A stretch of 36,421 nucleotides of DNA, from NCBI GenBank assembly GCA_964603145.1, contig CAZRTW010000002.1, forward strand, positions 1 through 36,421, given 5' to 3'. Under the pieces are notes generated by a model. That model was not told the origin of the DNA and searched no databases. It worked only from the letters and a program-made list of their open reading frames with translations. Shown here piece after piece: positions 1,925 through 17,946 of this stretch (position 1 is the stretch's first letter; the number at the start of each line of letters is the position of its first letter). Position numbers and translations under genes: made by a program. This DNA comes from an uncultured Candidatus Saccharibacteria bacterium. GTDB lineage: Bacteria; Patescibacteriota; Minisyncoccia; Phycocordibacterales; UBA9973.

Positions 1925-3754
1925 TTATCTCGCCCAGCCGCAGTGCACATGATTCCAATGGTCTGCACGGGTGTTAAAGCCAGTGGCCTTACAAAGTCCG
2001 GTGATATTTTTCCCATTTGCATCCTTTGGGTAGGAATCGCATGGCCCAAGAAGTTCGGTCGCTCCTGCGAGCTTACATGCTCCTCCTATGGCTTTTACAC
2101 GGGGGAGATCTGTCGCTCGGGCGGATATATCGAATGCAACTCCGAGATAGTGTCGTGAATCAGCGCTGTGGTCTCCCCCTAGGATTTCGCTCACACTTAT
2201 TGGGCTACTTGAAGCATCTGAAGCAGCAATCAATCCTGAGAGCATCTCGGCACTAAGCGCAACTTGCTTTGACCCTACATCACTACGTGCGCTTGTCCAT
2301 GCAAGAAGATTTTTTGAAGTATCAATAATATTTTGTTGTGGGCTTGAACGACTGTCCCCCTTTTGGTCAGCTTGGAAAGTAATTTTTGAATTTTTAAGAA
2401 TATCTTCCGCAAGTTTCTGTGCGCTTCCTGTAACGATCGTAATGTTTGTTGGTGGCGTGACTGTTGTTGGGATGGTTCCATCGGTATCAGTTATTGGACC
2501 TTCTCCCCCTAAATCTACCCCCGTAATATTCACCGAAACATCAGTCAGGGCGGGGTTAATAGTATTAAGCAGAATATATGAACCAAGCGCGAGAAGAAGT
2601 CCAAAGAGCGCATTCATAATACGGCTCTTAGCACCCTCCTTCTCTCCAAGAGAGATAGTCGACATATACTCAATACCACCGATCACGATCATAAGTACTG
2701 CTAGTACTCCGATGATACCAATGACGAGCTTAATGATGCTTTCGATATAAATACCAACCCCCTCTTTCACATTGATCTTGCCAGTTGGATCGATATTCCC
2801 ATTCGCGTCTGGTATTGGGAGTGGAGCGAGCATGCAGTATGTGTCGGTACCTTCACTGATACAGTTGTATCCATTCGGAGCGGCATTTGTTGGTTTATCA
2901 ACGATCGGAGTGTAGTACTCAGGAATAGTAAATGACCCCAAATTCCACATGGATGGTTCAGTAAGCCAAGCTCCCTCTATTCGTTGACGATTCAGTCCGA
3001 TACAATATGTTCCGCTCGGGAGATTATTATGCAGCCCCTTTCCCCACCAGTCTTTAATAGAATAGAGAGAACGGTCTTCATTCAAAAATGAGTCAACGGC
3101 TCCGCCTTCAACCGTTGTTGTTCCATTGTATGGGTTATGCTCACTCCCCTTCCATGTATTATCTTGCAAGCAAGCTCCTTTGGAGTTTGTTTCAGTCCCA
3201 AGAACCATCTGATATTTTGCTTCAACATTTGGGTCAGTAATATCAATTTTGACCTCAACCCATGGGGTGCTGTCACTATTAACTGAGGCATACGCAAGTT
3301 TAAATTTTTCTTTATTAACTTTGTTTGAGGTGACTGTAATTTTTCGGGTATTTGCGTATGGGCTGAAATCAAAATCCTTGAATGTGTTTACTCCGAGTTT
3401 TGTTGTGCGCTCATTAGATTCGAACCATCCTGTGCAATAAGCTCCATCAGGGAGGTCCTTCCATGTGTATGTAAGTTCGTACGGTTTTACGCCGTTCGTT
3501 TTTGGTGTAGCAAATTCTCGAGAAACGTATTTAGAATTAAATGTGCAGTCATCATCTTTTTCTGTTCCGAGGGCGAACTTAAGCGTGCCATCGTATGTAT
3601 CGTAGTATTGCAGCTTTACAACGTATCCTCCGTTTCCATCCATGAGTGGAGCTGATGATTGTTCCACATTGTCTCGTGCGAAAGCACTACCCGCCGGAAC
3701 GAGCAGAAGAAGCAATACTGTAAAGCCAATTACCCATGATGTATTTTTTTTCAT
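1925..3754 (-). CDS. Secreted modular protein: duplicated Cys-containing N-domain + VirB2/TrbC-like pilin hairpin + C-terminal LAS/M15-type zinc peptidase
   Basis: Signal peptide 'VLLLLLVPAGSAFA'. Two hydrophobic helices (aa ~335-362 and ~379-398) are separated by the charged loop 'STISLGEKEGAKSR'. The C-terminus has 'SRHYLGVAFD' (SxHxxGxAxD) and 'NHVHCG' (HxH) zinc-ligand motifs. The start lies 4 nt after the stop of the upstream gene. Confidence 0.8.
   Translation of the reverse strand: MKKNTSWVIGFTVLLLLLVPAGSAFARDNVEQSSAPLMDGNGGYVVKLQYYDTYDGTLKFALGTEKDDDCTFNSKYVSREFATPKTNGVKPYELTYTWKDLPDGAYCTGWFESNERTTKLGVNTFKDFDFSPYANTRKITVTSNKVNKEKFKLAYASVNSDSTPWVEVKIDITDPNVEAKYQMVLGTETNSKGACLQDNTWKGSEHNPYNGTTTVEGGAVDSFLNEDRSLYSIKDWWGKGLHNNLPSGTYCIGLNRQRIEGAWLTEPSMWNLGSFTIPEYYTPIVDKPTNAAPNGYNCISEGTDTYCMLAPLPIPDANGNIDPTGKINVKEGVGIYIESIIKLVIGIIGVLAVLMIVIGGIEYMSTISLGEKEGAKSRIMNALFGLLLALGSYILLNTINPALTDVSVNITGVDLGGEGPITDTDGTIPTTVTPPTNITIVTGSAQKLAEDILKNSKITFQADQKGDSRSSPQQNIIDTSKNLLAWTSARSDVGSKQVALSAEMLSGLIAASDASSSPISVSEILGGDHSADSRHYLGVAFDISARATDLPRVKAIGGACKLAGATELLGPCDSYPKDANGKNITGLCKATGFNTRADHWNHVHCGWAR
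2504..2839 (-). repeat. Copy 1 of a perfect 336-bp direct repeat (pilin-hairpin cassette)
   Basis: A base-by-base comparison shows 336/336 identity with 5525-5860 (offset 3021). Identity ends abruptly at both edges. Confidence 0.97.
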
Positions 3755-3758
3755 GTGA

Positions 3759-4760
3759 TTATTCGAGCGTCAATTGAAGACTACTTTCTGCTTCTTGGAA
3801 CAATCTGCTTGGGTTCATAATGCTTACAAAGAGCGAAGCACTTCCTTTTGTGGTTGTGTCACGATGAAGAAAGAGAACACCAGGAGTTTTTGGAGTAGGG
3901 AGCGGGTCGCCGTTTAATTCCCAATCATATTTAAGAGCTGCTGATGTTGGGCTTTTTTTCGAGAAGAAGTATGGCAAAACAATAACAGTTGTGTCACTTC
4001 CTGAAACCGAGTGCACTCCGGTGAGAGCAGTATCAAAAAGTGGACCATAGAGCGGGCTACCAGCATACCAGAGAACCTTAGGCTGGTATCCGTTAACACG
4101 AGCATTTCCTTTAGTGCTTACGGTTCCATCAGGTGTTGAAACAGAAACGGAAGCACTCTTTGATTGCGCGAGGTATGTAAGAGATGTTTTAAAAGAGTCA
4201 ATGCCATATCCTGATGCATTTTCGTCAGGATTGAAATCTTCTTGCCACGAATAAATAAAATTCTGTACTGGCACGAAATTCCCCTTCGTATCCTTTACTT
4301 GAGGGATTGCAACAAATTTGATATCAGATTCCGAAGACGGCAATGCTTTGCCACGATACAGTGGTGGGACTATAGAATCCGTTGACTGCCAGAGAATATC
4401 AACAGTCATTGGAGTTATGACGATTGTTTTAGTGATAGGGACTGATCCAACAGGCACGATGTAAATACCAATAGTTGTCGGTGAGCCGAGCTCTTTTGTG
4501 GTAAAAGTGAAGTGATCTGCCCCTACGCCTACGGCAGATTTTTTGCCGTCCTGTCGCCATTCGATTGTTGAGGATTTTAGGTCAACAACGAAGCTTTTAA
4601 TAGTCAGAGTGACACTCTCGCCTGGGCCAGGATTTTCCGGGGATGCTGTGACGGATATATCGGAATTGAAGTTTCCACCTGTTGGTGTTTGGGCACGGGC
4701 GTGAAGAAGCGGCACAAAAAGCATAGTGAGAAGGAATGCGCCAATAATTCTACGAAACAT
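3759..4760 (-). CDS. Secreted beta-rich (Ig-like) protein, function unknown
   Basis: The internal ATG at 4760 gives the classical signal peptide 'MFRRIIGAFLLTMLFVPLLHARA'. TGCTATACT lies 6 nt upstream. The longer ORF to 4844 would run through hairpin 4776-4808 into the upstream gene. Confidence 0.7.
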   Translation of the reverse strand: MFRRIIGAFLLTMLFVPLLHARAQTPTGGNFNSDISVTASPENPGPGESVTLTIKSFVVDLKSSTIEWRQDGKKSAVGVGADHFTFTTKELGSPTTIGIYIVPVGSVPITKTIVITPMTVDILWQSTDSIVPPLYRGKALPSSESDIKFVAIPQVKDTKGNFVPVQNFIYSWQEDFNPDENASGYGIDSFKTSLTYLAQSKSASVSVSTPDGTVSTKGNARVNGYQPKVLWYAGSPLYGPLFDTALTGVHSVSGSDTTVIVLPYFFSKKSPTSAALKYDWELNGDPLPTPKTPGVLFLHRDTTTKGSASLFVSIMNPSRLFQEAESSLQLTLE

Positions 4761-4766
4761 GCATAT

Positions 4767-4775
4767 AGTATAGCA
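4767..4775 (-). promoter_or_regulatory. Extended -10 box TGCTATACT, 6 nt upstream of ATG 4760
   Basis: Read directly on the minus strand. It immediately follows terminator hairpin 4776-4808. No SD sequence lies between the box and the ATG. Confidence 0.5.
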
Positions 4776-4808: not shown

Positions 4809-4813
4809 TTGTT

Positions 4814-6325
4814 TTACATCCAAGAGCTTGGATGGTCCATGCAATACATCATTTTTTTTGAAGCGTTTCGAGCCTCTTCTAAGTCTGTATTTTTCTTCGT
4901 ATGTTCAGGATTGTCATATGGGCATTCCCATGCTTTTACTGGCTTGTTCGCGGGGATGCAACTTGTTTCATTTTTGCAGTCTTTACTTGGTTTGCACCAT
5001 CCCGGCCCCGCTCCTTGTGCAGCTGCGACATTTCGCCAGTCTGTCCCGCATTGAGTGCTTTGAATGTATCGAATAAATTTCTCCTGAATACAAATAATTT
5101 TATCAATATTTTGGGGGTCAGAAAGCCATGATCCTGTTATTGTTCCAACAACACTACACTGTTTTGCATATGTCTGAGCAGTTGTGGGAAGTTGTTGGAA
5201 AATGCCATAAGCACGTCCATATTTTGTCATTTTACCCGGCTTAGTAATGTCGCAAGCTGATTCTTCTACCATATTTACTTTCATAAAGCGGGCAAGTTCA
5301 GGGTCGGACACAACTGCATCAATGCGAGCTGCATATTTTTTGCACATAGAGGTGATTCCTTCGCAATCCATTTTTCTGTCCCATGGCTTACAAATTTTTG
5401 CCATTTCATCACTTGTTTCCTGAGTGGTTGGCTTTGAAATTTTGACACCGGAATTTGGGTCTTTAACTATAAATTCAGTTTCGGGGGTCACTGTCACACT
5501 TTCTCCTTCTACTAATACCCCACTTCCCCCTAAATCTACCCCCGTAATATTCACCGAAACATCAGTCAGGGCGGGGTTAATAGTATTAAGCAGAATATAT
5601 GAACCAAGCGCGAGAAGAAGTCCAAAGAGCGCATTCATAATACGGCTCTTAGCACCCTCCTTCTCTCCAAGAGAGATAGTCGACATATACTCAATACCAC
5701 CGATCACGATCATAAGTACTGCTAGTACTCCGATGATACCAATGACGAGCTTAATGATGCTTTCGATATAAATACCAACCCCCTCTTTCACATTGATCTT
5801 GCCAGTTGGATCGATATTCCCATTCGCGTCTGGTATTGGGAGTGGAGCGAGCATGCAGTAAGCGCTCGTGTCTGTGCTCACACATCCATAACCGTTCGAG
5901 GCAGGTGGCTTGGTTGTGTCATCCGGATCTATCGTTGTTGTTGTGACAGGAGCTGTTTTTGTGGTAAATGTTCCGGTCAGTTTTGAGAAAAACGAATTAT
6001 CCTCAGGATAAATAGTATAACTATAGAGTGAACCAGTATTTAATCCTTTACATGCGACAATAAACTTTTCTGTGGTCGAAACTTGGCTACCTGGTTCCTT
6101 AGTTTCTTTTCCATCCTTGTCCACGCAAGTGATGAACATTTTTGTTTTAAAATCCTTTACCGAGCCAAGTTCAACCGCAAAAACTGCGATTGTGGTAGTG
6201 ATATCTTCCTGTACGATTTTTGCGCTTGTTGCTGCTTGTGCGAAGCCAGTGCCAAGCAAAAATACTCCAACGAAAAGGACTACACCTACCTTTGTCCAAA
6301 ATGTAGAACTGAAAATTTTTCTCAT
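4814..6325 (-). CDS. Secreted modular protein: N-domain + identical VirB2/TrbC-like pilin hairpin + C-terminal SLT-type lytic transglycosylase (VirB1-like)
   Basis: Signal peptide 'VVLFVGVFLLGTGFAQA'. aa 156-267 are identical to aa 306-417 of the 1925-3754 product. The C-domain has 'NMVEESACD...YGRAYGIFQQLPTTA' (catalytic E-S and a GLMQ-like motif of SLT domains). The start is 6 nt after the virB4 stop. Confidence 0.8.
   Translation of the reverse strand: MRKIFSSTFWTKVGVVLFVGVFLLGTGFAQAATSAKIVQEDITTTIAVFAVELGSVKDFKTKMFITCVDKDGKETKEPGSQVSTTEKFIVACKGLNTGSLYSYTIYPEDNSFFSKLTGTFTTKTAPVTTTTIDPDDTTKPPASNGYGCVSTDTSAYCMLAPLPIPDANGNIDPTGKINVKEGVGIYIESIIKLVIGIIGVLAVLMIVIGGIEYMSTISLGEKEGAKSRIMNALFGLLLALGSYILLNTINPALTDVSVNITGVDLGGSGVLVEGESVTVTPETEFIVKDPNSGVKISKPTTQETSDEMAKICKPWDRKMDCEGITSMCKKYAARIDAVVSDPELARFMKVNMVEESACDITKPGKMTKYGRAYGIFQQLPTTAQTYAKQCSVVGTITGSWLSDPQNIDKIICIQEKFIRYIQSTQCGTDWRNVAAAQGAGPGWCKPSKDCKNETSCIPANKPVKAWECPYDNPEHTKKNTDLEEARNASKKMMYCMDHPSSWM
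5525..5860 (-). repeat. Copy 2 of a perfect 336-bp direct repeat (pilin-hairpin cassette)
   Basis: Identical to 2504-2839, in the same orientation and the same reading frame (112 codons). Confidence 0.97.
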
Positions 6326-6331
6326 ACGATA

Positions 6332-8176
6332 CTACTCTACAGCTTTTGACAGCTCATTGCGCGACTTTTGAAGGGCAAGAATCTGTGATGGATCGCTCGT
6401 GATGAGCTGGTCTTCTGTGTATGAAGCAATAATCTTAATTGCCACGTGTTTGAGACCTGCAAAGAAGATTCCCTCACCTTTACTACACTCAAGCAGAAGG
6501 TATTTTTCTTCGTCTGTCAGATTGAATGTTTTTTGGAGCGCCTCTACGGTTGATGGAGATTGTTTAAGAAGGAGTTGCAGACTTGAGTTTGTGATGATTG
6601 GCACGCCGTATGGGCTCTTCATAAAGTCGCCCACATCTTGGGTGATAGTTGCAAGACCCAAGAAATATTTTCGCCCACGTTTTGCAATTGAAAAGAGGAA
6701 CGATGCGGTATCGTCTGATTTCATCATCCACCATGCCTCGTCCACCACCAAGAGTCGTTTTTTTATGTTTTTGCGCACTTCATTCCAGATGAAATGCGTC
6801 ACGATGTTCATCGCCGCTGGTTTCAAATCGTCTTCCATGTCACGCACAGAGAAGACTACAAACTTTTTATTAATATCCACATTTGATGGCTGGTTGATGA
6901 ACCCTGCCCATGAGCCGTGCGTATATTTAGAGAGACGCGCAACCAACGAATCTGTTCCTTCCATACCGGAGAGGACCATTTCAAAGTCAGAGAGAAGCGG
7001 TGGTTCGATTTGGGCAAAATCAGAATCAGGAGTGATGTCTTTGATCGCATAGTTTTCCATAATCGCGCGATCGATGAGTGAATCTTCTTCTGGAGTGAGG
7101 CCGCCGAGCATAATACGGAAAAGACCAACAAGGTTAATCACGTTTCCACGGAGTACATCAGTATTGGTCTCCCCTTCTCCTGGGAGCGGGAGGTCAAATG
7201 GATTGATGTGGCTACCTGAGTTGAGGGAAATATTAAAGTAACGACCGCCAAGCGCTTCGGCCAAGCGTTCGTATTCACGTTCTGGGTCGATCACAATCAC
7301 TTCCGTTTCGAACATGAGTGATCGGATGATCTCAAGTTTTGTCGCGTATGATTTACCGGCACCGGAGGTCGCGAAAATAATTGAGTTGTAGTTATCGAGC
7401 GAGAATCGATCGAAAATGATAAGTGAAGAGTTCTGTCTATTCACGCCATACAGAATTCCCTTGTCTGAAGTAAGATCGAATGAAACAAACGGGAAGAAGC
7501 TCGAGAGCGGTTCAGAATTGAGTTTCTGATAAATCCGGAGATGGTCGTCCTCAAGCGGAAGAATGCTTTTAAAGCCATCATCCTGTTGGAAGAGGGCCGG
7601 CTTGAAGTAAATGAGTTTAGACTCAAGGATTGATTTGATTTCGTTCTCAATCTTGTAGAGTTCCGTGTCATTGTCTGCGTAAATAGTGAGATATAGTCCT
7701 ACATCAAACATTTTTTCTTGGGCTTGGGTAAGGCGGTCGCGCAAATCCTCAAGGTTCTGGTTTGCCACATCAAGTTCCGGGTCGCGCACCAGACCTTTTG
7801 ATTCGCGAGTCATAATCTGACTTTGTACTTCTGCCACTTTTTTCTGGAAATTTCGAAGAACGATTGCTGTTTCAACTGGGTGGATCACAATCGAAATATC
7901 AAATACTTTGTCGAGGTTAATGATTGGGGTGAGCCAGTTGTCGTTGATGGTTGAAGGATATGAAATAACGAAGTAGGTTCGGGCAATTTTGTCGCCGAGG
8001 TTGATGGACTTTGGTTCAATCTTAAGCGCAGATGGCGCAATAATGTCTTTGAGTTCGAGTGTGGCTGCCTCGTAGATCTGGTCTGGCAGAACAGGCATGG
8101 CATTTGACTGAATGCGCGTGGAGCTCTGCGCATTTTTGCTCGTATTCGTATTTCCAAAAAGTCCAAAAAATGCCAT
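6332..8176 (-). CDS. virB4: VirB4/TrbE/CagE-family type IV secretion ATPase (middle + ATPase domains)
   Basis: Walker A 'FATSGAGKSYATK', Walker B 'RLLVVDEAWWMM'. The N-terminal part 'IAPSALKIEPKSINLGDKIARTYFVISYP' is typical of Gram-positive VirB4 homologues. Confidence 0.85.
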   Translation of the reverse strand: MAFFGLFGNTNTSKNAQSSTRIQSNAMPVLPDQIYEAATLELKDIIAPSALKIEPKSINLGDKIARTYFVISYPSTINDNWLTPIINLDKVFDISIVIHPVETAIVLRNFQKKVAEVQSQIMTRESKGLVRDPELDVANQNLEDLRDRLTQAQEKMFDVGLYLTIYADNDTELYKIENEIKSILESKLIYFKPALFQQDDGFKSILPLEDDHLRIYQKLNSEPLSSFFPFVSFDLTSDKGILYGVNRQNSSLIIFDRFSLDNYNSIIFATSGAGKSYATKLEIIRSLMFETEVIVIDPEREYERLAEALGGRYFNISLNSGSHINPFDLPLPGEGETNTDVLRGNVINLVGLFRIMLGGLTPEEDSLIDRAIMENYAIKDITPDSDFAQIEPPLLSDFEMVLSGMEGTDSLVARLSKYTHGSWAGFINQPSNVDINKKFVVFSVRDMEDDLKPAAMNIVTHFIWNEVRKNIKKRLLVVDEAWWMMKSDDTASFLFSIAKRGRKYFLGLATITQDVGDFMKSPYGVPIITNSSLQLLLKQSPSTVEALQKTFNLTDEEKYLLLECSKGEGIFFAGLKHVAIKIIASYTEDQLITSDPSQILALQKSRNELSKAVE

Positions 8177-8181
8177 AAAAA

Positions 8182-8829
8182 TTATTGCACCCCTTCCAGC
8201 TTAATAGCCGGCTGGATATCTCCCGGGTTAAATGTCTTATAGAAAAGTTCAATCACTTCTTCTGTTTGGAGACGCTCACAGCGAGCGCCACAGCTTGCAA
8301 GCCCACCTGAAATAACTGATACACGTTCATCAAGCTGAGTACGGCGTTCTTCGAAATTTGCATCATCGACTTTTTTCTTATTTTTCTCCCCTCCTCCGCC
8401 AAAAATCTTTGAGAAAAATCCCTGCTTTGAATTAAGCGCTGCCTCTTCGTAGGGAATAACAACATAGAAATACTTTCGCATAATGGAAACCTGTTCAGTA
8501 AATTCACGTACGAAGTTAATGTATCCAAGAGTCTGGAGTTTTAGGAGGGGTTCGCGCTGTTCAGCTACTTTGCTCTCAAGCATGATGAGGTATGGACGAA
8601 TATCAAGGCGTCGAGATTGTACAACAATCTGCACCGGAAAATCGAGAGAGTTTAAAAAGCCTTGGAATTGGCGGATAACGGCGATTTGTTCCTCGGCAGA
8701 TTTGAGGGCAAGGTTTACGGAAGAAACGGCCAAAATAGCGCGAAGTGCGCCGTCTTTGAGCACCACAGTTCCCTCTCGTACTTCTTTGATTGGTACGAAT
8801 TCTTGAGTAGCGGTTGCAGAAATTGCCAC
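8182..8829 (-). CDS. VirB4 N-terminal-domain-like protein encoded as a separate ORF
   Basis: GTG start. 'FVPIKEVREGTVVLKDGALRAILAVSSVNLALKSAEEQ...' resembles the N-terminal ~200 aa of full-length Gram-positive VirB4 proteins. The stop is 5 nt before the virB4 ATG, in another frame. 215 + 614 aa is about the length of an unsplit VirB4. Confidence 0.6.
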   Translation of the reverse strand: MAISATATQEFVPIKEVREGTVVLKDGALRAILAVSSVNLALKSAEEQIAVIRQFQGFLNSLDFPVQIVVQSRRLDIRPYLIMLESKVAEQREPLLKLQTLGYINFVREFTEQVSIMRKYFYVVIPYEEAALNSKQGFFSKIFGGGGEKNKKKVDDANFEERRTQLDERVSVISGGLASCGARCERLQTEEVIELFYKTFNPGDIQPAIKLEGVQ

Positions 8830-8860: not shown

Positions 8861-8896
8861 AAGAATAAAACCCCATAACTATGGGGTTTTATTCTT
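8861..8896 (-). terminator. Hairpin terminator after the PrgI-like gene
   Basis: 15-bp stem (aagaataaaacccca / tggggttttattctt) with a 6-nt loop. It overlaps the stop codon at 8895-8897. Confidence 0.75.
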
Positions 8897-9311
8897 AGCG
8901 TCGGTTTGTTTTATCAAGTACGTCGAGGCCCCAAGCAATATCATGAAGTTTTGATTCAGTAATACGTGGGATAAAAACAGGATTTTTTGCTTTTTCTTCG
9001 GCGTCTTTCTCCTCTTTTGATTTTCGCTTCTTTTTTTCTTGCTTCCAGACATAGAGTTTATCGCTAAATGCATACGTAAACGCAGATTCAACGATATTTA
9101 TGAATGGTTTGTCGTTCACTTTGATAAAGGCGAGAGTGAAGGCGAATACGGCAACTGGTATAGCAACAATAATCCCAAAGAAGAGCGGTAGAAGTTTCAG
9201 TGCAAGGAAACAAAGACCCCCTCCTCCAGCGAGATACACGAATTGGCGGAATGTTAGTTGCCCAAAAATCTTATCTTCGACATCAATAAATTGTGGCACT
9301 GAGAATCTCAT
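8895..9311 (-). CDS. PrgI/VirB3-like small membrane protein
   Basis: 'MRFSVPQFIDVEDKIFGQLTFRQFVYL' followed by two TM helices, which is the pattern of PrgI/TcpE-type VirB3 analogues. It has its own promoter-like box and terminator. Confidence 0.65.
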   Translation of the reverse strand: MRFSVPQFIDVEDKIFGQLTFRQFVYLAGGGGLCFLALKLLPLFFGIIVAIPVAVFAFTLAFIKVNDKPFINIVESAFTYAFSDKLYVWKQEKKKRKSKEEKDAEEKAKNPVFIPRITESKLHDIAWGLDVLDKTNRR

Positions 9312-9326: not shown

Positions 9327-9355
9327 AAAAGTCGGCGCGTATGCGCCGACTTTTT
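9326..9355 (-). terminator. Intrinsic terminator after CDS 9354-10229
   Basis: GC stem gtcggcgc/gcgccgac with a 4-nt loop, flanked by A5/T5. It abuts the stop codon. Confidence 0.85.
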
Positions 9356-10272: not shown

Positions 10273-13068
10273 TTAGTGCCCATGCCCGTCCCCTCCCGCA
10301 TGTCCATGATCATCATGCCCGTGGTCGTCGTGTCCATGATCAGAGCCACTTGCCTTTATTCCCGATGCATCAACCTTGATAACAGGGTTGAGTGGGGCTC
10401 CTTGTTTTCCTCGGTGGTCGTCAGCACCGGCGTTTGCTGCGGCTGCATCAATGTTACGCGGGGTCCAACTGTTGATCATGTCCTTAGTATTTGCAGAACT
10501 TTGTCTGACAATATCAGTTACACCATATTTGAAGATATTTCCAAAGTTTTCAATTGCGGAAATTATGCCTTTGTAATTCTTAAATTCTTCAAGATTTAGT
10601 TTAAAGGAGCCCATAACATCCTTGGTTTTTTCTTTGCGTTCACCAAGATCGAGGTGTCCGGTACGAATTATACTTCCGGAAGAATCAAGAAGGTCTCCAT
10701 GGAGTGCGTAATTTTGCTGTGCGAGCTGCATATGAGTGAGTGATTTAGCACGATCGTTCTCATTTCGTTTCTGCATGCTCTGAAGCTGAGCAATAGTTTT
10801 TCCATGTGATCCAGTAAGATCGGCGCGAGAGACATCGTGATCAGTAACAAGTTCGTCGTCAGCCTTCTTAGCTTTATGTTCAACGTGTTCTTTAAAGTAG
10901 CTTGCCGTTGTCCTGCCCATGTCGATATCCTGTTTATCAATGGTGTGCATGACCGTTTTACCATCTTTATCTCTAATAGCTTGCCCGTCTCGGCCAAGTA
11001 CTGCGATTTGTTTACCAAGAGCAAGCTCCGGATGATCTTTATCTCCGAGCTTAATTTTTGAGACTCCTTCTGTAACATTCAATAATGCCTTTTCAAGCGC
11101 TTCTTTTTCCTTGTTTGCTGCATACCATTCACCAGACTTAGTATCCATACTATTCTTTTTATCTGCCTGTGAAAGAGTAGAGCTAAGATTTTTTACCTTA
11201 TCTCGAGCCGCTCTAAGTTCAATATTGATATCCTTTTTGGCTGTATCTCGTTCATCAAGCGTATCATCATAGCCATTTTGCTGGTCATGGTTATGGCCAA
11301 GCTTTTTCTTCATTGCATCGAGTTTTGCGGCTTTAGCATTCATTTCACCTTCAAATCCTCCGGCCGCACGCTGCATTGAAAGGGCACCAAAACTGCCCAT
11401 GTTCATACCAGTAAATTGGCGGGTTGTTGCTCCCATGCCTGTTTGACGCCAGTCGTATGAACGAGCCGCACGTTTTTGCGCGCTCTCGACTTTTTTAAAC
11501 ATATCTTTCTGCATGGTCTGAAAGCGGGAGTCTTTTTTCATTTCTGCTTCAGACATTCCTTCCATATCTGTAGCTGAGAGTTTAAATTTTTTCGCGAACA
11601 TTTCTTTGGTTGCATTTGTTACACGGCCAGATGCCATGTCGAGGTTTGCTTCATTCTTAGCAAAGTTCATTGCGCGACCTCCAAGGATTCGTCGGCCCGC
11701 AAGGGAAGCGACACCAGAAACCCCGCCAAGTGCAAGCCCCCCAGCAAGTCCAATTCCTTTTTGTGCAAGGTTTGCTACTACTTGTCCGAATTCTCCCGCA
11801 GAAGATTTTACGTACTTCGTCGCTTTGAGGATCATCACAACCAGCATCGCAAAGAAGATGAGCATGATGAACAATGTTGCGTATGAACTATGTGTTGCTG
11901 CGAAGGAGTCTCTTACCATCTGACTCTTTGCCATGATGGAAATAAGAAGCAGGAAGAAGAAATAAATCGGAGCGCCAAAGGCAACGGCAAGAAGATCCGC
12001 CCACCAATGATCCCAGCCAACACCATGAATGTGTTTTGTTTTTGGAATGATGTAACTCACAAAGGCGATTGGTGCGAAGACAATGGCAATCCAGAGACTA
12101 ACCATGCGTCCGAGGCAGGCCATGGCGGCAATAAAGAGTGACCAAGCCATGACGAAGTAGACGATTCCCACAAGAATGAGGAGCCCCATAACCGTGGAAG
12201 GAGGGATATCACCGATTATTCCGTTTGGTGAGAGTCCCTGCCAGAATTTCTTACTTTGGAATTTTTGCGGTTCGAATGCTTGGACCAATTGCGTACTGAT
12301 AGATTTTGGCGGAGTCGCTCCGTTTCCATATACACCACCTACTGATCCGGCATTTTTTTCTCCGTCTACTACGACAACCGATGAGGCCCCGATTTGATTA
12401 TAGAAAACTAAGGCCAGCGTATTTGATATATCAATCACCACCTCGGTGATGAACATGCTGAAGTTTATGATAAGGGCGATCAGAACAATCGATGCCAGCA
12501 TCTTTTTGGGGTTCGCGTGGGCAATTTCAATATCGAGCACGAAGGAGAGTGCTGTAAAGAGGAGAATCAAAATAAGAAAAATATTGGCGAAGTCGCGTGT
12601 TATACGCCAGCCTTCTGCAATAAATTCCGCCCCGCTATAGTAGGTGCTCTGCAGCGTAATAGCAGCGAGTGTGTCAAAGAACGAGGCAGAGAGATACATG
12701 AATTTCGCACCAATCAGGTATGGGAAGAAGTAGAAGAGATATTCAAGACAGCCGATGAGCGTACCGCTAAAGAGGAGGCCACATTGGTCCTCGATTGCCT
12801 GCTCAATACTATATTTATCACTTGTATTTTTTGCCTTAGTCGCCTCTTCTTCAGCTTGTGATACTGCAATCGATGAAAGTATTTGGACGGAAGGGTAAAT
12901 CAACTGCGCCGTTGCTCTTTTAGGGGCAAGCATGGGAGAAAAAACTCCCAGTAAAACTGAAGTTAAAAGTATCGGAATAACAATACGCTTCATAATGCGT
13001 ATGCGTCCTCCTATTTTATTTTTTCTTCGGCTAAAGATTTGCATTCTGTCCTGGTTTGCACCGCACAT
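10273..13068 (-). CDS. Polytopic membrane protein, VirB6/TrbL-like (TcpH/ConG-type) with a long hydrophilic C-terminal domain and His-rich tail
   Basis: Signal-like N-terminus and multiple TM helices across aa ~100-460. A ~470-aa charged, coiled-coil-like tail ends in 'GSDHGHDDHGHDDHGHAGGDGHGH'. The start is ambiguous: ATG 13068 has TATACT 10 nt upstream, and ATG 12993 (MKRIVIPILL...) has AGGAGG 13 nt upstream. Confidence 0.7.
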   Translation of the reverse strand: MCGANQDRMQIFSRRKNKIGGRIRIMKRIVIPILLTSVLLGVFSPMLAPKRATAQLIYPSVQILSSIAVSQAEEEATKAKNTSDKYSIEQAIEDQCGLLFSGTLIGCLEYLFYFFPYLIGAKFMYLSASFFDTLAAITLQSTYYSGAEFIAEGWRITRDFANIFLILILLFTALSFVLDIEIAHANPKKMLASIVLIALIINFSMFITEVVIDISNTLALVFYNQIGASSVVVVDGEKNAGSVGGVYGNGATPPKSISTQLVQAFEPQKFQSKKFWQGLSPNGIIGDIPPSTVMGLLILVGIVYFVMAWSLFIAAMACLGRMVSLWIAIVFAPIAFVSYIIPKTKHIHGVGWDHWWADLLAVAFGAPIYFFFLLLISIMAKSQMVRDSFAATHSSYATLFIMLIFFAMLVVMILKATKYVKSSAGEFGQVVANLAQKGIGLAGGLALGGVSGVASLAGRRILGGRAMNFAKNEANLDMASGRVTNATKEMFAKKFKLSATDMEGMSEAEMKKDSRFQTMQKDMFKKVESAQKRAARSYDWRQTGMGATTRQFTGMNMGSFGALSMQRAAGGFEGEMNAKAAKLDAMKKKLGHNHDQQNGYDDTLDERDTAKKDINIELRAARDKVKNLSSTLSQADKKNSMDTKSGEWYAANKEKEALEKALLNVTEGVSKIKLGDKDHPELALGKQIAVLGRDGQAIRDKDGKTVMHTIDKQDIDMGRTTASYFKEHVEHKAKKADDELVTDHDVSRADLTGSHGKTIAQLQSMQKRNENDRAKSLTHMQLAQQNYALHGDLLDSSGSIIRTGHLDLGERKEKTKDVMGSFKLNLEEFKNYKGIISAIENFGNIFKYGVTDIVRQSSANTKDMINSWTPRNIDAAAANAGADDHRGKQGAPLNPVIKVDASGIKASGSDHGHDDHGHDDHGHAGGDGHGH

Positions 13069-13076
13069 AACTCTTA

Positions 13077-15845
13077 CTAGTATATATTGATAATCGCCTC
13101 AAGTCCGGCAAGAGCGTATTTCAACGGTTGGTCATTAATCGTTACAACATCATCATTCTTAACGACATTCTTCTCGGTTTGTTTCCCAAACTTTGCCTCG
13201 AAGTGAGGAACTTGGTCAGCCCCCTGCCCCATCGCATAGTGTACGTCAGGGAGCATTGAGTATCCGACATCGGTAAAGGTATCTTCAAATGCAATAAATT
13301 CTGCACGGCCATCATATGCCCCGTATCCCGCAGATGGCGCCATTACTGGGATTTCTTCCAATATTGTTCTTGGGTAAAACATGCGTGCCTTTGGAGCACT
13401 GTATGCCGCGCCGTTTGTGTCAGTTACACATGTTTCAATGTATCCACCCTTGCCTTCGTAGTCAGAGAGTTCATTTTTAAGTGCTACAAGTGCGTCTTCC
13501 TGCTTGTTAACATCGTCAAGGCTGTGAATTTTTGGAGCGATAAGATCAAAGGTACTGCTGATGCGACGAAGCTCAACTTGGTATGGAGTCAAAATCGCAA
13601 TACTTTTTCCTTGTGTTTCAAGGAAGTCTTGCTGATACCAATACCACTTATCGTGAGGAATAACTGGCGCTGTTGGAGTTGGTGGCGTAATTACAGTACC
13701 CGTTCCTGTGGTAAGGGTGGCTATACCAAGCTGTTGCGGAGCGATTGTTGTGTTAGTGAAGAGCGTTGTGGTCGTTGTTTGTGTGTGGTCAATATATCCT
13801 GCAAATGTCGGGAGTTTGTTGATGCGGGCAACAAGGCTATTTAGTTGCTCGACAGTTGCCTTACTGCTTGTGATCAAAATCTTGTTGTCGTGAAGCGCTT
13901 TTTTGTAAGCACTAACATTTCGGAATTTAGTCTCATTGATTGTGTATTCAAGCGGTAGATTTAATGTGATGTCCGGATTATATTCAGGCAAATATGTCTG
14001 ATCAACAATATCAGCGTAACGATTAAAGAGAGTGTTGAAAATATTTACGATAGAGTTGTGCCCGTTTACTTTGAGGTTGTCCTCGACAGTAACATGTGTT
14101 GTCGGCGGAGGATTCTGTTGCTTATTCGGGAAGTAGTAATCATCACTTGGCTGCGCTGGCGTGTAGCTCAAGAAATGTGAAACAACACCAGCAAAGAATT
14201 TCTCATTGCGCTTATCGCTCGTTGCGTTTTTTAGGTTTAGGAAGTTTATTGGATCGAGAATTTTATTCACAATGAGTGATCCCTGGCTGATTGCCGCGTC
14301 AGCATTCGCAGGAATATTATCCGAACTTGAGGTGAATTCTCTCAAGTTTTCTACCGCATCTTGTCTCCACCCTGGATGTGGTCCTGGTACACAGAAGTCG
14401 AGTTTGTATACGGCTGTAATAAGGCGTGCTGCTTGCTGATTTTGTTCTTCCAGCGCTTGCTGGTACCCCCGTGGCTTCGGGTCAAGAGCATTTTTGGGAG
14501 TGTAATCCTCATTTGGAATGATAAGCGGGATATCCTTGAAGACATTGAATGTTCTGTTTGAATTGAGCCATGAACCATTTGTATTAGGGTCTACTCCCCC
14601 AACAACATCGATTGAAGGATTTACGAATGAGCCATTGTTCGTGTATTGCGATGGGGCAGAACTTGCATCTGTTGTTGCAAGTGCCGCGAGACCTCGTTGC
14701 ATAAGTTGGTTGGTGAGTGCATTGAAAATTGCTGTGAGATCTGCGGTAAGATCCTGGCCAAGACCAAGCTGATCGATTGGAGAACCAAGAACTTTGTTAA
14801 GACTTGCTGCGACCACGCTTCCTGGAGTTTGTGTCGCGTACTGTGTACAGGTGTTATTGAAGACAACTTCGCGAAGACGCGCAGCTTCTTTTTCGCTTGA
14901 TGGATCATCCGGCAACGCGCGCATTTTCGCCCGTGCCTCTGCTGCAGTTTTGTCGGAGCTGTCATTATAGGTACTTGGTGCTACACAAATTTTTGTATCA
15001 AGAAATCCGGCGTTACGCATAAGTTGATCGCGGATGTCATACGCAGGATTGTAGTAGGTTCCCTGCTTTCGTGCAGCTATTTCATTCTGTGCTCCCATCT
15101 GGAAGCCGATCGGATTGTTTCCTGTTTGGAATTGATGATCAAAAGCTACCCAACCCCCTTCAAGAAAACTACGCTCGAAATCTGCTACTGTTGGTGGGCG
15201 GGAGTATGTGTTGTACTGCTGAGCAAGTACGCGATCAAGACTGTACTGTGCTCGCTGTTCGAATGTACGGCTCATGTTGCTTACAATTCCTTGCGCGACA
15301 TTGCGACCGAACGGGTAATTTTTTGCATCAAAGGCAATATTGCCGACAAATTTTTCTGTCGCTTGATCACCAATTGCTTTTAGGAAAGATTTTTCATCCT
15401 TTGGGAAAAATGAACTACCGCCTTTAAATCCGCGGTTGATCCAGTTTACTGTGGCAACTGTGAGTTGGCGTAAAATAACTTGAGCTGCAGCTTTTTCAAC
15501 TGCCTTAGTACAAGTGATATCGTTTGCTGTTGTCGCAGAAGCATTCGCAATTTTTTCAGCTGTTTCTGAATCTTGCACGACGTTGATCGGGATTGAGTTT
15601 GATCCTGATGCCCCTGTCCCCATTGTGCTTCCGCTACTACTGTTACCGCCAAAGATGCCGCTGATTCCTGAACTAATTTGATCTTTATGGCAGGAAATTT
15701 CTGCTGCTGCAATTGCACCAATAGTATCTACAGCAATTGTGGAGAGTGATGTTGCGTATGCCATCGTCACGCTTTGAAACGTGATGACAAGCACGAGAAA
15801 AACCGCAAAAAAACGTTTTAGCGCGCCATATGCAGTCTGTTTCAT
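13077..15845 (-). CDS. Large (922 aa) secreted or N-terminally anchored protein, no recognisable domain
   Basis: N-terminal hydrophobic segment 'FFAVFLVLVITFQSVTMAYA'. Thr/Pro-rich linker 'TTTTTLFTNTTIAPQQLGIATLTTGTGTVITPPTPTAP'. TATACT lies 8 nt upstream of the ATG. Confidence 0.75.
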   Translation of the reverse strand: MKQTAYGALKRFFAVFLVLVITFQSVTMAYATSLSTIAVDTIGAIAAAEISCHKDQISSGISGIFGGNSSSGSTMGTGASGSNSIPINVVQDSETAEKIANASATTANDITCTKAVEKAAAQVILRQLTVATVNWINRGFKGGSSFFPKDEKSFLKAIGDQATEKFVGNIAFDAKNYPFGRNVAQGIVSNMSRTFEQRAQYSLDRVLAQQYNTYSRPPTVADFERSFLEGGWVAFDHQFQTGNNPIGFQMGAQNEIAARKQGTYYNPAYDIRDQLMRNAGFLDTKICVAPSTYNDSSDKTAAEARAKMRALPDDPSSEKEAARLREVVFNNTCTQYATQTPGSVVAASLNKVLGSPIDQLGLGQDLTADLTAIFNALTNQLMQRGLAALATTDASSAPSQYTNNGSFVNPSIDVVGGVDPNTNGSWLNSNRTFNVFKDIPLIIPNEDYTPKNALDPKPRGYQQALEEQNQQAARLITAVYKLDFCVPGPHPGWRQDAVENLREFTSSSDNIPANADAAISQGSLIVNKILDPINFLNLKNATSDKRNEKFFAGVVSHFLSYTPAQPSDDYYFPNKQQNPPPTTHVTVEDNLKVNGHNSIVNIFNTLFNRYADIVDQTYLPEYNPDITLNLPLEYTINETKFRNVSAYKKALHDNKILITSSKATVEQLNSLVARINKLPTFAGYIDHTQTTTTTLFTNTTIAPQQLGIATLTTGTGTVITPPTPTAPVIPHDKWYWYQQDFLETQGKSIAILTPYQVELRRISSTFDLIAPKIHSLDDVNKQEDALVALKNELSDYEGKGGYIETCVTDTNGAAYSAPKARMFYPRTILEEIPVMAPSAGYGAYDGRAEFIAFEDTFTDVGYSMLPDVHYAMGQGADQVPHFEAKFGKQTEKNVVKNDDVVTINDQPLKYALAGLEAIINIY
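13079..13084 (-). promoter_or_regulatory. -10-like TATACT, 10 nt upstream of ATG 13068
   Basis: It overlaps the last codons and stop of CDS 13077-15845. It has no TGn, and the start codon of the downstream gene is ambiguous. Confidence 0.3.
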
Positions 15846-15853
15846 CAGTCTAT

Positions 15854-15859
15854 AGTATA
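15854..15859 (-). promoter_or_regulatory. -10-like TATACT, 8 nt upstream of ATG 15845
   Basis: Read directly from the sequence. No SD motif is present. Confidence 0.4.
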
Positions 15860-15923
15860 CCGGTAGAATTCTTTTTAGGAAAGCAAAAGAAAGGAAAGGT
15901 AGGCCCTAAATTATAGGTTTTTC

Positions 15924-16829
15924 TTACTTCCCAAAAAAGTAAACGCGAATGACTGTTGATGCATCATTTGCGTCGGTACTTGCCTTCACAAAATCGTCGA
16001 GGCCAACCATGCCACCCAAGGCATCTTTGTAAATATTCTGTATTTGGGGCAAAGTGACAGCCATTTTTGCTTCCGCGTTAGCCAGTTTTACTACTTGGGG
16101 AAGGATATCGCTTGGTGTAGGGATAGTTGTGAGTCCTTCAGCAAGCGCTGCATGAGCATTTGCGATAGGGGTGAGCTTTTCCATAACCGTTTCTCCACCT
16201 TCTCCCATGCCGGTCGCGATAAGCATAAGCTCAGAACCTAAGGCGGGGTCGCTGTGCTCTTCAATGAGATCACGCATTGCCGAAGCATAGGTTTGTTTTC
16301 TAGAATATGACGGAGAAATAAGGGTAAAATTGGCTTCCGTGTAGATTTTTGAAGCCACATGCTTGGTGTCCACGTCGTCTCCGATGGCTGCGGCGAGGTT
16401 GGTTATAGCCTCTTCAGTAAGAGAGCCTGACTGCTGAAGGGCCAAAATAGTGCTAAAGAGGTCTCGGCTGAATTTGTCTGTTTCTGTGAGATTTTCATCA
16501 CCCTCGCTATTTACATCAATCCCGCCGTCGATCTTTTTCTGGACAATTATAGCTTTATTCGTTTCTCCGTCTCCGAGAGGATCAAGACCCCAAAGGGTTT
16601 CTTCCCAGTCAGCAATGCTATTTCCGTTGGAATCTTGGGTAACAAGGTCAGAAACGGTGCCATTTGAGGTAAAAAGAGCCTTTCGTTCGCGATTGAAGAT
16701 ATCGCGGGAGCCAGTAAATTTACTAAGAACAAGGACAATCACGAGCGCGAGAACAAGAATGCCAATAATAATGGCAAATTTCTTGCTTGGCAGGAACTTT
16801 TTAATTTTTTGAGTATTAGACGTTTCCAT
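15924..16829 (-). CDS. N-terminally anchored extracytoplasmic protein, function unknown
   Basis: TM 'FAIIIGILVLALVIVLVL'. Acidic 'DSNGNSIADWEETLWGLDPLGDGETN' is a Ca-binding-like motif. GGGGAG lies 9 nt upstream of the ATG. The gene overlaps the upstream gene by 14 nt (translational coupling). Confidence 0.7.
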   Translation of the reverse strand: METSNTQKIKKFLPSKKFAIIIGILVLALVIVLVLSKFTGSRDIFNRERKALFTSNGTVSDLVTQDSNGNSIADWEETLWGLDPLGDGETNKAIIVQKKIDGGIDVNSEGDENLTETDKFSRDLFSTILALQQSGSLTEEAITNLAAAIGDDVDTKHVASKIYTEANFTLISPSYSRKQTYASAMRDLIEEHSDPALGSELMLIATGMGEGGETVMEKLTPIANAHAALAEGLTTIPTPSDILPQVVKLANAEAKMAVTLPQIQNIYKDALGGMVGLDDFVKASTDANDASTVIRVYFFGK

Positions 16830-17283
16830 TTGAAAAGACTCCCCCGAAACTTCCTGCCGTCCCCGCCATAAATTTTTTGGTTGTTTGGAAAAATGCGTTA
16901 CCGGTGCCTACTCCCGGGCTTGAGCTATATTTCCCATCGGCATAGGATACAAATGTACATGTGGGGGTTGCTTCTGTCATGCAGACCTGCCCTCCAGAAT
17001 TATAGCTGCCGATTTGAATTGTACTGTAATTGACATCATTGTGTGCGTATACTTTTGAATATTGGTAGTTAAGCTTAAGCTGCTGATGAGTAGCATAGTC
17101 TTGAATGAAATGTATGTTTGTTATATTTCCTTTGCAGTTGCAGGTGCTTTCATCATAGGCAAGATTGTGTCGCCCGCCGAAATACTGTCCTCCTCCAGCT
17201 GACTGACCAACGGCAGTTTCTACCGGCAAAAAGCCAAGTCCGAAAAATGCGAGCATGAATAAAAAGTAGAGGTTAACTTTCAT
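16816..17283 (-). CDS. Small secreted Cys-containing protein, function unknown
   Basis: Signal peptide 'MKVNLYFLFMLAFFGLGFLPVETAVG' and four Cys in the mature part. TGATATACT lies 6 nt upstream. Confidence 0.7.
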   Translation of the reverse strand: MKVNLYFLFMLAFFGLGFLPVETAVGQSAGGGQYFGGRHNLAYDESTCNCKGNITNIHFIQDYATHQQLKLNYQYSKVYAHNDVNYSTIQIGSYNSGGQVCMTEATPTCTFVSYADGKYSSSPGVGTGNAFFQTTKKFMAGTAGSFGGVFSNGNV

Positions 17284-17289
17284 AGCGTA

Positions 17290-17298
17290 AGTATATCA
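17290..17298 (-). promoter_or_regulatory. Extended -10 box TGATATACT, 6 nt upstream of ATG 17283
   Basis: The TGA of the extension is also the stop codon of CDS 17296-17946. Confidence 0.45.
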
Positions 17299-17946
17299 AA
17301 TCCCCTTTGTTATGTTTATTTTTACTGGGAATGGCGCACTCGAACCGTTTTCGTTTGAAATTGCTACTGATGCATCAATGTACCAGCCAGTTGGGTCGGT
17401 AGAATTTGTTGTGATGATGTGTCGCACCACTTGCTTGTGCTGTTCTTCCGTAAGCTGCCACCAATCTTCCGCCATAGTTGCTGAAAGGGACAGATCAGCT
17501 TTGAAAGTGACCGAAGTACCGTTGTTTTTTGCTGGAATATGAATGAAGGCATCATCAAATTCAATGGATACAAGAACAGCATTGTCCTCAGTGAAATTTT
17601 CCCCATAGATTGTCACTGTGTCGCCGTTACCGAATCGCGGATTTGAAATATGAGAAATGGTAGGCGCACGCATTTTGTCATTCTTTGTAGGGACATAGAG
17701 GTCTGGGGCCTCTTTTACAGGGCTTGGTGTGTCTCTTTTTTCTCCTTCAACACCAGAGAGGAATTCTTCTGCAGTTGGGGCATCATTTCTATCCCCTTCC
17801 TTTAAAATCTGCTGTGTTCCATCAGTTTTGAAAGCTAATTTTTGCAGTGCTTCTTTCGGGCTTTCTTTTTTGATAATCAGAAAAATAGCTGCTCCAGCGA
17901 GGAGAAGAGAGAGGAGCGCGAGACCAAATTTTTTGCCAGCGTACAT
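17296..17946 (-). CDS. N-terminally anchored protein with a possible IPT/TIG-like beta domain
   Basis: TM 'FGLALLSLLLAGAAIFLII'. 'PTISHISNPRFGNGDTVTIYGENFTEDNAVLV' resembles IPT/TIG repeats. TGGTATACT lies 7 nt upstream. Confidence 0.7.
   Translation of the reverse strand: MYAGKKFGLALLSLLLAGAAIFLIIKKESPKEALQKLAFKTDGTQQILKEGDRNDAPTAEEFLSGVEGEKRDTPSPVKEAPDLYVPTKNDKMRAPTISHISNPRFGNGDTVTIYGENFTEDNAVLVSIEFDDAFIHIPAKNNGTSVTFKADLSLSATMAEDWWQLTEEQHKQVVRHIITTNSTDPTGWYIDASVAISNENGSSAPFPVKINITKGI

Follow-up and report, generated by a model that had tools for sequence, protein, structure and literature searches.

A putative Patescibacteria-type type IV secretion locus with pilin-like modules joined to cell-wall hydrolases

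Does a cluster of conjugation-like genes on the chromosome of a presumably host-dependent bacterium belong to a mobile element, or has it become a fixed machine of the cell envelope? The question is raised by a 36,421-bp stretch of DNA (the window), the sequence of contig CAZRTW010000002.1 of assembly GCA_964603145.1, which carries on its minus strand a locus resembling a type IV secretion system (T4SS). An initial annotation, made from the sequence alone, had outlined a minimal Gram-positive-type T4SS at 1925-17946 and read it as a domesticated envelope machine rather than a conjugative element. This reading is upheld by conserved synteny, constraint on VirB4, uniform G+C and the lack of mobility genes or att repeats. 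The locus is probably the Paceibacteria version of the Patescibacteria-clade T4SS, a chromosomally fixed and vertically inherited derivative of MPF_FATA conjugation machinery that sits off mobile elements. Its identity as a Patescibacteria-type T4SS is close to certain, a non-conjugative function is very likely, and we lean, by a modest degree, towards a host-interaction translocon as its actual role. Reduced T4SS loci of this kind were already known in Patescibacteria, and the interpretation has been published (PMC10633639, PMC12102498, PMC12857230). Quinonero-Coronel et al. 2025 (PMC12102498) found VirB4 in 2,417 of 3,035 Patescibacteria genomes; of these proteins, 2,425 group as a single clade inside MPF_FATA, with TrsD, PrgI/VirB3, VirB6 and VirB2-like pilins clustered near virB4 (PMC12102498).

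The secretion motor and its chromosomal setting

The motor comprises a VirB4 core, a separate TrsD-like protein and PrgI, all encoded, like the rest of the block, on the minus strand. The VirB4 ATPase core (6332..8176) is of the MPF_FATA/CD1110 type. Its Walker A 'ATSGAGKS' and Walker B 'LLVVDEAWW' strings can be read directly and are intact, it matches Pfam P-loop_TraG (6e-24), and it scores 379.9 bits against a curated cutoff of 325 for NF045971 conju_CD1110, the NCBIfam CD1110 family of VirB4-like conjugal transfer ATPases. Five nucleotides upstream and in a different frame, an open reading frame (ORF) at 8182..8829 gives sub-cutoff matches (1e-6 to 2e-9) to TrsD and to several VirB4 models, in the latter over the N-terminal 100-230 positions, in agreement with its earlier description as a separate VirB4 N-domain. 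The PrgI/VirB3-like small membrane protein (8895..9311) passes the Pfam PrgI cutoff (PF12666; 1.3e-10, 42.1 bits against 27) and has a hydrophobic segment at aa 25-67. Among the profile assignments expected for a T4SS core, VirB4 and PrgI stand above their cutoffs; the pilin lies just under its own with matching orthologues, and the VirB6-like protein is unmatched directly.

To place these genes in context, VirB4 relatives were collected by a back-translated search with one genome per species, which returned more than 590. The best 80 matches, 72-87% identical to the window's VirB4, formed the comparison set; all are metagenome-assembled genomes (MAGs) labelled Paceibacterota, Nomurabacteria, Parcubacteria or generic Patescibacteria. 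Every window protein was compared with the 80 loci by tblastn, and 40 of the loci retain full 10-kb flanks. In all 80 a TrsD match directly precedes virB4, and in 76 a closed ORF of its own, mostly ~213 aa long, could be delimited; PrgI is present in 76 of 80. Because the separate TrsD persists throughout these loci, the VirB4 split appears to be ancestral rather than a frameshift error. A frameshifted VirB4 pseudogene was considered and rejected on the same counts. A separate TrsD ORF near virB4 has also been described in Patescibacteria before (PMC12102498). The CD1110 match and an identity of 73-87% to the VirB4s of more than 590 Patescibacteria genomes point to probable membership of the Patescibacteria VirB4 clade.

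The ORFs of the block all lie where the initial annotation had placed them, and only one of its limits needs revision. From 579 to 17946 all substantial ORFs are co-directional, separated by short gaps or overlapping. A hydropathy scan found an N-terminal hydrophobic segment or transmembrane (TM) helices in every one of them except VirB4, TrsD and the Pro/Thr-rich protein at 9354-10229, the very exceptions that had been named. The last gene, g437 (579..1892), encodes a membrane-anchored exported protein with an N-terminal TM helix at aa 4-32 and a weak PD40 match (0.007), possibly a beta-propeller. It is matched in 68 of the 80 loci and keeps its position in those with full flanks. Behind it, between convergent g437 and jag, an inverted repeat at 517..560 (minus strand; 20-bp stem with 12 G-C pairs and a T tail) resembles a strong intrinsic terminator and is predicted to close the T4SS transcription unit. 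Given the synteny of g437 and this terminator, the downstream boundary, drawn earlier at 1925, should be moved down to 579; the upstream end stands. The Jag-like R3H protein that follows (17..487, plus strand; Pfam R3H 1e-14) is the downstream core boundary gene, matched in 53 of 80 loci and found in the same convergent position where flanks are complete. At the upstream end rsmA (ksgA; 17968-18765; Pfam RrnaAD 2e-50) ends 21 nt before the small gene g216 and is preceded by pcrA (18960-20990; Pfam UvrD-helicase 7e-87), both on the minus strand, the same flank being present in relatives.

Gene order across species indicates how the locus is inherited. In most of the 40 fully flanked loci the order is pcrA-rsmA-g301-g922-VirB6-like-(Pro/Thr-rich)-PrgI-TrsD-VirB4-g361-pilin-g437, with jag convergent at the end, and a few show rearranged downstream genes. 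The bracketing by jag and by rsmA-pcrA, claimed from the window and supported there by the Pfam matches, is thus a feature shared with most of these relatives. Frequent neighbors of Patescibacteria virB4 are dnaA, dnaN, rnpA, ksgA (=rsmA) and rpmH (PMC12102498). Median identity to the window proteins is 76% for VirB4, 56% for TrsD, 50% for RsmA, 47% for PrgI and 46% for Jag; the ATPase therefore seems to evolve more slowly than its housekeeping neighbors. VirB4 is more conserved than RsmA, PcrA and Jag, an unusually strong constraint for a T4SS ATPase.

Signs of mobility were sought in the same window. Domain searches of its 28 large ORFs detected no relaxase, type IV coupling protein (T4CP), VirB11, integrase or replication domain, in keeping with the absences noted at the outset. 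The window holds no tRNA, no att-like direct repeats were found bracketing the block, and G+C is even along it (0.39-0.49), with no compositional island. Two considerations weigh against the reading that these results favor: the absence of a relaxase and T4CP holds for one 36-kb contig only, and the contrast between VirB4 and the housekeeping genes is somewhat inflated by the choice of the 80 loci on VirB4 similarity. In the wider phylum, T4CP genes are seldom adjacent to virB4, and VirD4-like genes are located far from it in many Patescibacteria (PMC12102498). Taken from gene content and order, the locus appears to be a vertically inherited chromosomal machine and not an integrative and conjugative element (ICE).

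Hydrolases carried on pilin-like hairpins

Two proteins of the block combine a pilin-like hairpin with a putative cell-wall enzyme. The first occupies the canonical pilin slot (1925..3754) and consists of a signal peptide, an exported N-domain of ~290 aa, a VirB2-type hairpin at aa ~306-418 and a LAS/M15-like Zn-peptidase domain at aa 444-607 (nt 1934-2425). The second (4814..6325) is an extra copy between virB4 and g361, with a signal peptide, an N-domain of ~150 aa, a hairpin at aa 156-267 and an SLT domain at aa ~310-503 (nt 4817-5398). They follow a common plan of signal peptide, N-domain, conserved 'YCMLAPLP' motif, a pair of TM helices with a Lys/Arg-containing loop between them, and enzyme domain. 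Since the signal peptide and the positively charged inter-helix loop fix the topology by the positive-inside rule, the domains on both sides of the hairpin are predicted to be extracytoplasmic. The hairpins score 24.8 bits (1925-3754) and 24 bits (4814-6325) against T4SS_pilin (PF18895), slightly below its cutoff of 26.6, and also weakly match the NCBIfam Mbov_0395 pilin-like family. A relative whose hairpin is 64% identical to the window's passes the PF18895 cutoff. The initial annotation had assigned SLT and M15 domains to these hairpin proteins. The hairpins hold, SLT holds by way of homologues and M15 to a moderate degree through a LAS motif, but neither enzyme gives a direct profile match.

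The SLT assignment is well supported by homology. The C-terminal 214 aa of 4814-6325 yielded no direct Pfam, NCBIfam or PDB-sequence match at E up to 10, and homologues were collected by an exhaustive phmmer search over 1.84 billion representatives. This search uncovered 156 homologues, down to E 2e-51. Pfam SLT (PF01464) is matched by 90 of 99 such homologues (best 1.9e-18), and 66 of the 99 also carry T4SS_pilin. The catalytic E355-S356 is invariant, and G374 and Q377 of a GLMQ-like motif are conserved, which argues well for an SLT lytic transglycosylase.

The C-domain of 1925-3754 is likely a LAS-type peptidoglycan peptidase, on the strength of its zinc motif, its relatives among PG_binding_1 proteins and a trend in fold comparison; in the strict sense it is a putative member of M15. 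An H-x6-D plus H-x-H arrangement ('SRHYLGVAFD...NHVHC'), which we take to be the LAS/M15 zinc signature, is invariant across the homologue alignment. At 35% identity (pairwise E 7e-21) the domain resembles the C-domain, itself unannotated, of Streptomyces proteins with two PG_binding_1 repeats at their beginning. In Foldseek searches with an AlphaFold2 model (pLDDT 71), Hedgehog N-terminal domains came out on top and the LAS enzyme MepA at rank 10. Speaking against the assignment, none of these hits is significant (E-values 0.19-0.5), and the domain has no Pfam M15, NCBIfam or PDB-sequence match at E up to 10.

We then gathered 72 pilin-domain proteins from the same slot downstream of virB4 in the relatives (loci L002-L078; for example L004:6558-8756, L025:11864-13705 and L002:12871-14616). 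PF18895 is matched by 58 of these syntenic orthologues and TrbC by 6. The hairpin is embedded in longer proteins, with an N-terminal extension of median 171 aa and a C-terminal one of median 183 aa that reaches at least 100 aa in 67 of the 72. When the window and all the related loci were scanned with a hairpin hidden Markov model, no short ORF encoding a pilin alone came up; 66 loci had one hairpin ORF and 6 had two. The Pfam domains among the 72 include NlpC/P60 (15), VanY (10), YkuD (5), M15_4 (3), Amidase_5 (3), SLT (2) and SLT_2 (2), besides SLT_4, 3D and Extensin-like_C, and wherever positions were checked the hydrolase is C-terminal to the hairpin. BLAST sorts the C-extensions into 20 unrelated clusters, and the N-terminal domains, Ig-like modules, are equally variable. 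A phmmer search with both window hydrolase domains against all ORFs of the 80 loci returned no match, so neither of the window's two cassettes recurs there.

Which class of enzyme a species carries has practically no relation to how similar its VirB4 is. Where VirB4 identity reaches 85% or more, two species belong to one enzyme cluster in 12% of cases, against 7-13% of more distant pairs, and pairs at 94% VirB4 identity already differ. VirB1 homologues have been found associated with virB4 mainly in Paceibacteria (PMC12102498), which fits the pilin-hydrolase fusions seen here. Full-text searches of the T4SS and Patescibacteria literature, including PMC12102498, PMC10633639 and PMC12857230, turned up no description of this fusion architecture, and swappable hydrolases fused to pilin-like modules are the only aspect of the locus not found described.

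The exchange of enzymes raises the possibility that the hairpin hydrolases are directed at the host, being shown on or delivered by the T4SS or a pilus to cut host peptidoglycan, with cassette exchange tracking host wall chemistry and hence host range. This reading is conceivable, and we rate it below an even chance by a good measure. The long, unrelated C-extensions with their diverse hydrolase families, the equally variable Ig-like N-domains and the lack of stand-alone pilin ORFs near virB4 in the clade would all be expected from it, as would two enzymes on an identical hairpin in the window and an enzyme class that close VirB4 relatives share no more often than distant ones. Gram-positive T4SSs, however, routinely have membrane-anchored bifunctional hydrolases for the donor's own wall (PrgK and CwlT, from literature cited in PMC12102498). 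The shuffling of domains might also be neutral, and polymerization or membrane exit of the fusions is an assumption. A more elaborate form is a doubtful conjecture: the VirB2-type pilin of this Paceibacteria clade would serve as a carrier module, every hairpin near virB4 standing between a variable Ig-like N-domain and a C-extension that is usually peptidoglycan-active, and, with the T4SS as base or passage, the fusions would form an enzyme-decorated pilus or stalk to cut the host wall, the cassette setting host range.

The two window genes share a hairpin module that is identical over 336 nt (2504..2839 and 5525..5860; direct repeat, minus strand, 100% identity), and identity falls to 30-47% right outside both edges. 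Such a pattern indicates a very recent gene conversion or cassette exchange, or else an assembly artefact. The window hairpin is 64.5% identical to a relative of the M15 lineage and 63.6% to one of the SLT lineage, values too close to give a direction of conversion. In the 53-nt gap between the pilin-SLT gene and g361 a perfect palindrome with a 16-bp stem lies at 4775-4809; it may be a terminator or attenuator brought in with the inserted cassette. An artefact, in which metagenome assembly merged strain variants and so produced the duplicated module and the extra pilin-SLT gene, is suggested by the perfect identity with its knife-edge boundaries, by the MAG origin of the contig and by the order in nearly all relatives, where virB4 is followed by g361 and a single pilin gene. 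We nevertheless judge it improbable. Both ORFs are intact and properly spaced, the inserted gene is followed by a stem-loop, pilin-SLT fusions are common elsewhere, and 6 of the 72 relatives have two pilin genes, with one relative carrying a pilin before g361.

The VirB6-like protein, accessory genes and surroundings

Upstream of the motor genes lies a large polytopic membrane protein (10273..13068) with a signal peptide, ~7 TM helices (aa 156-457), a charged C-terminal region of 470 aa and a His-rich tail. It is tentatively read as a probable 'extended VirB6', as weakly and indirectly suggested by family matches of its orthologues, a Foldseek trend towards TrwI, the ~7 TM helices with a hydrophilic tail of 470 aa, and where the gene lies in the cluster. 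Of 49 syntenic orthologues, 10 match the NCBIfam MMCAP2_0566 conjugal transfer protein (best 6e-9), 3 the Mbov_0396 ICE element transmembrane protein (7e-8) and 4 the CD3337/EF1877 mobilome membrane protein. An AlphaFold2 model of residues 26-472, built from a 24-sequence alignment (pLDDT 73.8), retrieved R388 TrwI/VirB6 from the PDB by Foldseek at ranks 1 (8rtd_L) and 10 (7o3v_G), with a probability of 0.75 each, and DotA at rank 3.

Several results pull the other way. The window protein has no Pfam, NCBIfam or PDB-sequence match even at E up to 10, the Foldseek hits are not significant (E-values 0.2-0.6, TM-scores 0.25-0.40), and MMCAP2_0566 covers a small share of the orthologues. Pfam TrbL/VirB6 is matched neither by the window protein nor by the 49 orthologues, and the orthologue profile found nothing among PDB sequences. 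Of the VirB6-like assignment in the initial annotation, the polytopic topology and some orthologue matches thus stood, but a direct family match did not. A PF19590 tag precomputed on three distant homologues of the polytopic protein could be neither reproduced nor identified. Its His/Asp-rich end (10273-10340), 'HGHDDHGHDDHGHAGGDGHGH', has a counterpart in the orthologue consensus, which likewise ends in GGHH, and may be metal-binding. The listed gene start is too far upstream, the true one being probably M26 at 12993.

The remaining genes of the block encode mostly exported proteins. Directly after virB4 in relatives stands g361, in the window a secreted Ig/PKD-like protein (3759..4760) whose signal peptide begins at M29 of the listed ORF. 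Signal peptide positions and orthologue lengths argue for later starts in both g361 and the VirB6-like gene; for g361 the predicted start is the ATG at 4760 instead of the TTG at 4844, which removes the overlap with 4814-6325. It is matched in 77 of 80 loci, with orthologues of ~328 aa, a mean column identity of 43% and weak PKD_3/Ig_3 matches. The large protein g922 (13077..15845) appears exported or anchored through an N-terminal hydrophobic segment and is syntenic in relatives; its homologues are all hypothetical, some with Ig-like PF16403. The first gene of the core block, g301 (15924..16829), encodes a bitopic membrane protein (TM aa 11-42) matched at the block's upstream end in 35 loci, a candidate VirB8 analogue by position. 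Orthologue-alignment profiles of g922, g361 and g301 gave only coiled-coil noise against PDB sequences. Between the VirB6-like gene and prgI, a cytoplasmic protein with a Pro/Thr-rich tail (9354..10229) lacks a signal peptide, TM segments and any Pfam or NCBIfam family match, and has weak tblastn matches in the same slot of 27 loci. The stretch between rsmA and g301 is a variable slot. In the window it encodes g155 and g216 (155 and 216 aa; 16816..17946), small proteins with a signal peptide or TM segment, secreted or anchored, which are apparently lineage-specific: g155 is matched in none of the 80 loci and g216, which has a weak IPT/TIG match, in one.

Beyond pcrA, domain searches identified YkuD, LysM-M23, comM, pnp, an NYN protein and rpsO. 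Closest to pcrA, two large and highly charged cytoplasmic proteins of 371 and 912 aa (21248-25182) have no family match and are absent from the related loci as far as the flanks reach; the longer contains repeated 'QN...SLNAEI..LAEKLGI' units, judged by eye. Further cell-wall enzymes follow near the T4SS at 25948-28592, namely a YkuD L,D-transpeptidase-domain protein and a divergently oriented LysM-LysM-Peptidase_M23 protein; M23 and LysM domains occur among Patescibacteria VirB1-like hits (PMC12102498). A competence-associated, ComM-like ATPase of the Mg-chelatase family (28627-30195) lies 10 kb from the T4SS, and beside it a small ORF (30305-30721) has a C4 zinc-finger motif resembling DksA/TraR, by eye only. 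No Rfam family was matched in the window, and a sigma-70 promoter scan of it gave background level only.

Possible roles and comparison with known systems

Patescibacteria account for much of bacterial diversity and seem to depend on other microbes for their living. No T4SS before their chromosomal one had been shown to be essential to the cell that carries it. In Southlakia epibionticum, transposon sequencing (Tn-seq) found the T4SS cluster essential for epibiotic growth (Wang et al. 2023, Cell, PMC10633639), and its authors remarked that a relaxase and a coupling protein were missing and that the pilins were unusual (PMC10633639). A 2025 FEMS review ranks the Patescibacteria system as a new T4SS type (PMC12857230). 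If the window's locus works alike, TrsD/VirB4, docked by PrgI on the VirB6-like protein, would energize an envelope-spanning translocon. The two hairpin-anchored enzymes could supply the glycosidase-plus-peptidase ('VirB1') activity for crossing peptidoglycan, as PrgK/CwlT/TraG-type proteins do in Gram-positive T4SSs, and the conserved exported g361, g437, g922 and g301 might form the extracellular part. The machine would then serve a host-dependent (epibiotic) life and, instead of conjugating, carry proteins or macromolecules from the host over the zone of contact. Against this picture stand the essentiality of the T4SS, known by Tn-seq only for one Saccharimonadia species (PMC10633639), and the VirB8-like protein, of which none was identified in the block.

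Uptake of DNA, which the initial annotation had listed among the possible roles, is disfavored by the same cultivated species. Under this alternative the locus would be a competence T4SS like Helicobacter ComB or archaeal Ced, taking in host DNA to obtain nucleotides. Import of DNA or other host macromolecules has been proposed for the Patescibacteria T4SS (PMC12102498), and a 2026 preprint on another cultivated ectoparasite, a bacterium from a metabolically reduced lineage, describes feeding on host RNA and tubular structures, possibly T4SS pili; these two reports keep import in play. The lack of a relaxase and T4CP in the window also fits an importer, comM lies 10 kb away, and VirB4 has a short CedB-like match (52 aa at 2.6e-7). 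That match, however, covers the Walker B region only and is far under cutoff (29.7 bits against 700); no CedA or ComB partner protein was detected in the window's domain searches, and the block has no DNA-binding or DNA-processing component. In S. epibionticum, competence relies on type IV pili and ComEC; the cell can do without comEC but not without the T4SS (PMC12857230), so that the essentiality of the T4SS is not due to competence. A DNA-uptake function thus seems rather unlikely.

Least credible, to the point of being barely tenable, is an ordinary or decaying ICE or plasmid-derived island with its relaxase, coupling protein and integrase outside the window: elsewhere, the VirB4, PrgI and pilin-like families typically belong to Firmicutes and Mycoplasma conjugative elements and the visible genome is 36 kb only, but an ordinary ICE is ruled out by the fixed position between core genes across many species together with the strong purifying selection on VirB4, and neither the window, where no relaxase, coupling protein, integrase, tRNA, att boundary or compositional island came to light, nor the rarity of relaxases in Patescibacteria (109 in 3,035 genomes; PMC12102498) lends it support.

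The locus, read as a T4SS of the Patescibacteria type, adds nothing fundamental to the published picture and gives it a clean syntenic example from Paceibacteria. The lead it offers is the physical coupling of pilin modules to rapidly exchanged wall hydrolases, which could tie the machine to host-wall breaching and host specificity.

The closest described counterpart is the T4SS of Ca. Southlakia epibionticum ML1 (SEML1_0004-0019), a member of Saccharimonadia, whereas the window belongs to Paceibacteria. The Southlakia system is the prototype of the Patescibacteria VirB4 clade (PMC12102498). There the order is VirB6-like, PrgI, TrsD, VirB4, a Hedgehog/DD-peptidase protein, a lysozyme-like plus cysteine-proteinase protein and Ig-like exported proteins (PMC10633639 supplementary tables), and the T4SS genes were scored essential except the NTF2-like SEML1_0012 (PMC10633639). 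Both systems are chromosomal, co-directional clusters with the order PrgI-TrsD-VirB4 and a large polytopic VirB6-like protein upstream. In both, a glycosidase and a peptidase, a Hedgehog/DD-peptidase (LAS) hydrolase in Southlakia and a likely LAS-type one in the window, come directly downstream of virB4, followed by Ig-like exported proteins. They further share PF18895 pilin modules, a cluster without relaxase or coupling protein, and a place adjoining origin-proximal or ribosome-related core genes. Southlakia differs in having six stand-alone pilin genes, an NTF2 (VirB8-like) protein and hydrolases not annotated as pilin fusions. In the window there is no stand-alone pilin, both hairpins lie inside hydrolase-bearing proteins of 500-600 aa, and g922, g361, g437 and g301 are without recognized Southlakia counterparts.

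With the conjugative MPF_FATA T4SSs (CTn2 with its CD1110 VirB4, Prg of pCF10, Con of ICEBs1, Tcp of pCW3 and the Mycoplasma ICE with Mbov_0395-0397) the window shares VirB4, PrgI, a weak Mbov_0395 pilin match, the families of its VirB6-like orthologues and associated peptidoglycan hydrolases with glycosidase and peptidase activities. Unlike them, it holds no relaxase, oriT protein, T4CP, integrase or replication genes and keeps a fixed position among core genes across species. Its VirB4 is split into TrsD and a core ORF, TrsD being found among conjugative systems only in the pGO1 subclass, and it has VirB2-type hairpins, which Gram-positive conjugative systems generally do not (PMC12857230). 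The two fusions most resemble PrgK (pCF10), CwlT (ICEBs1) and TraG (pIP501), membrane-tethered extracytoplasmic enzymes of the T4SS operon in which a peptidase is joined to a lytic transglycosylase or muramidase. In the window each activity instead has a protein of its own, a VirB2-type two-helix hairpin serves as tether in place of a single TM helix or lipid anchor, and an extra Ig-like N-domain precedes the hairpin. The peptidase is likely of LAS type where PrgK, CwlT and TraG use CHAP or NlpC/P60, and the window's relatives use NlpC/P60, VanY, YkuD and others at the same slot.

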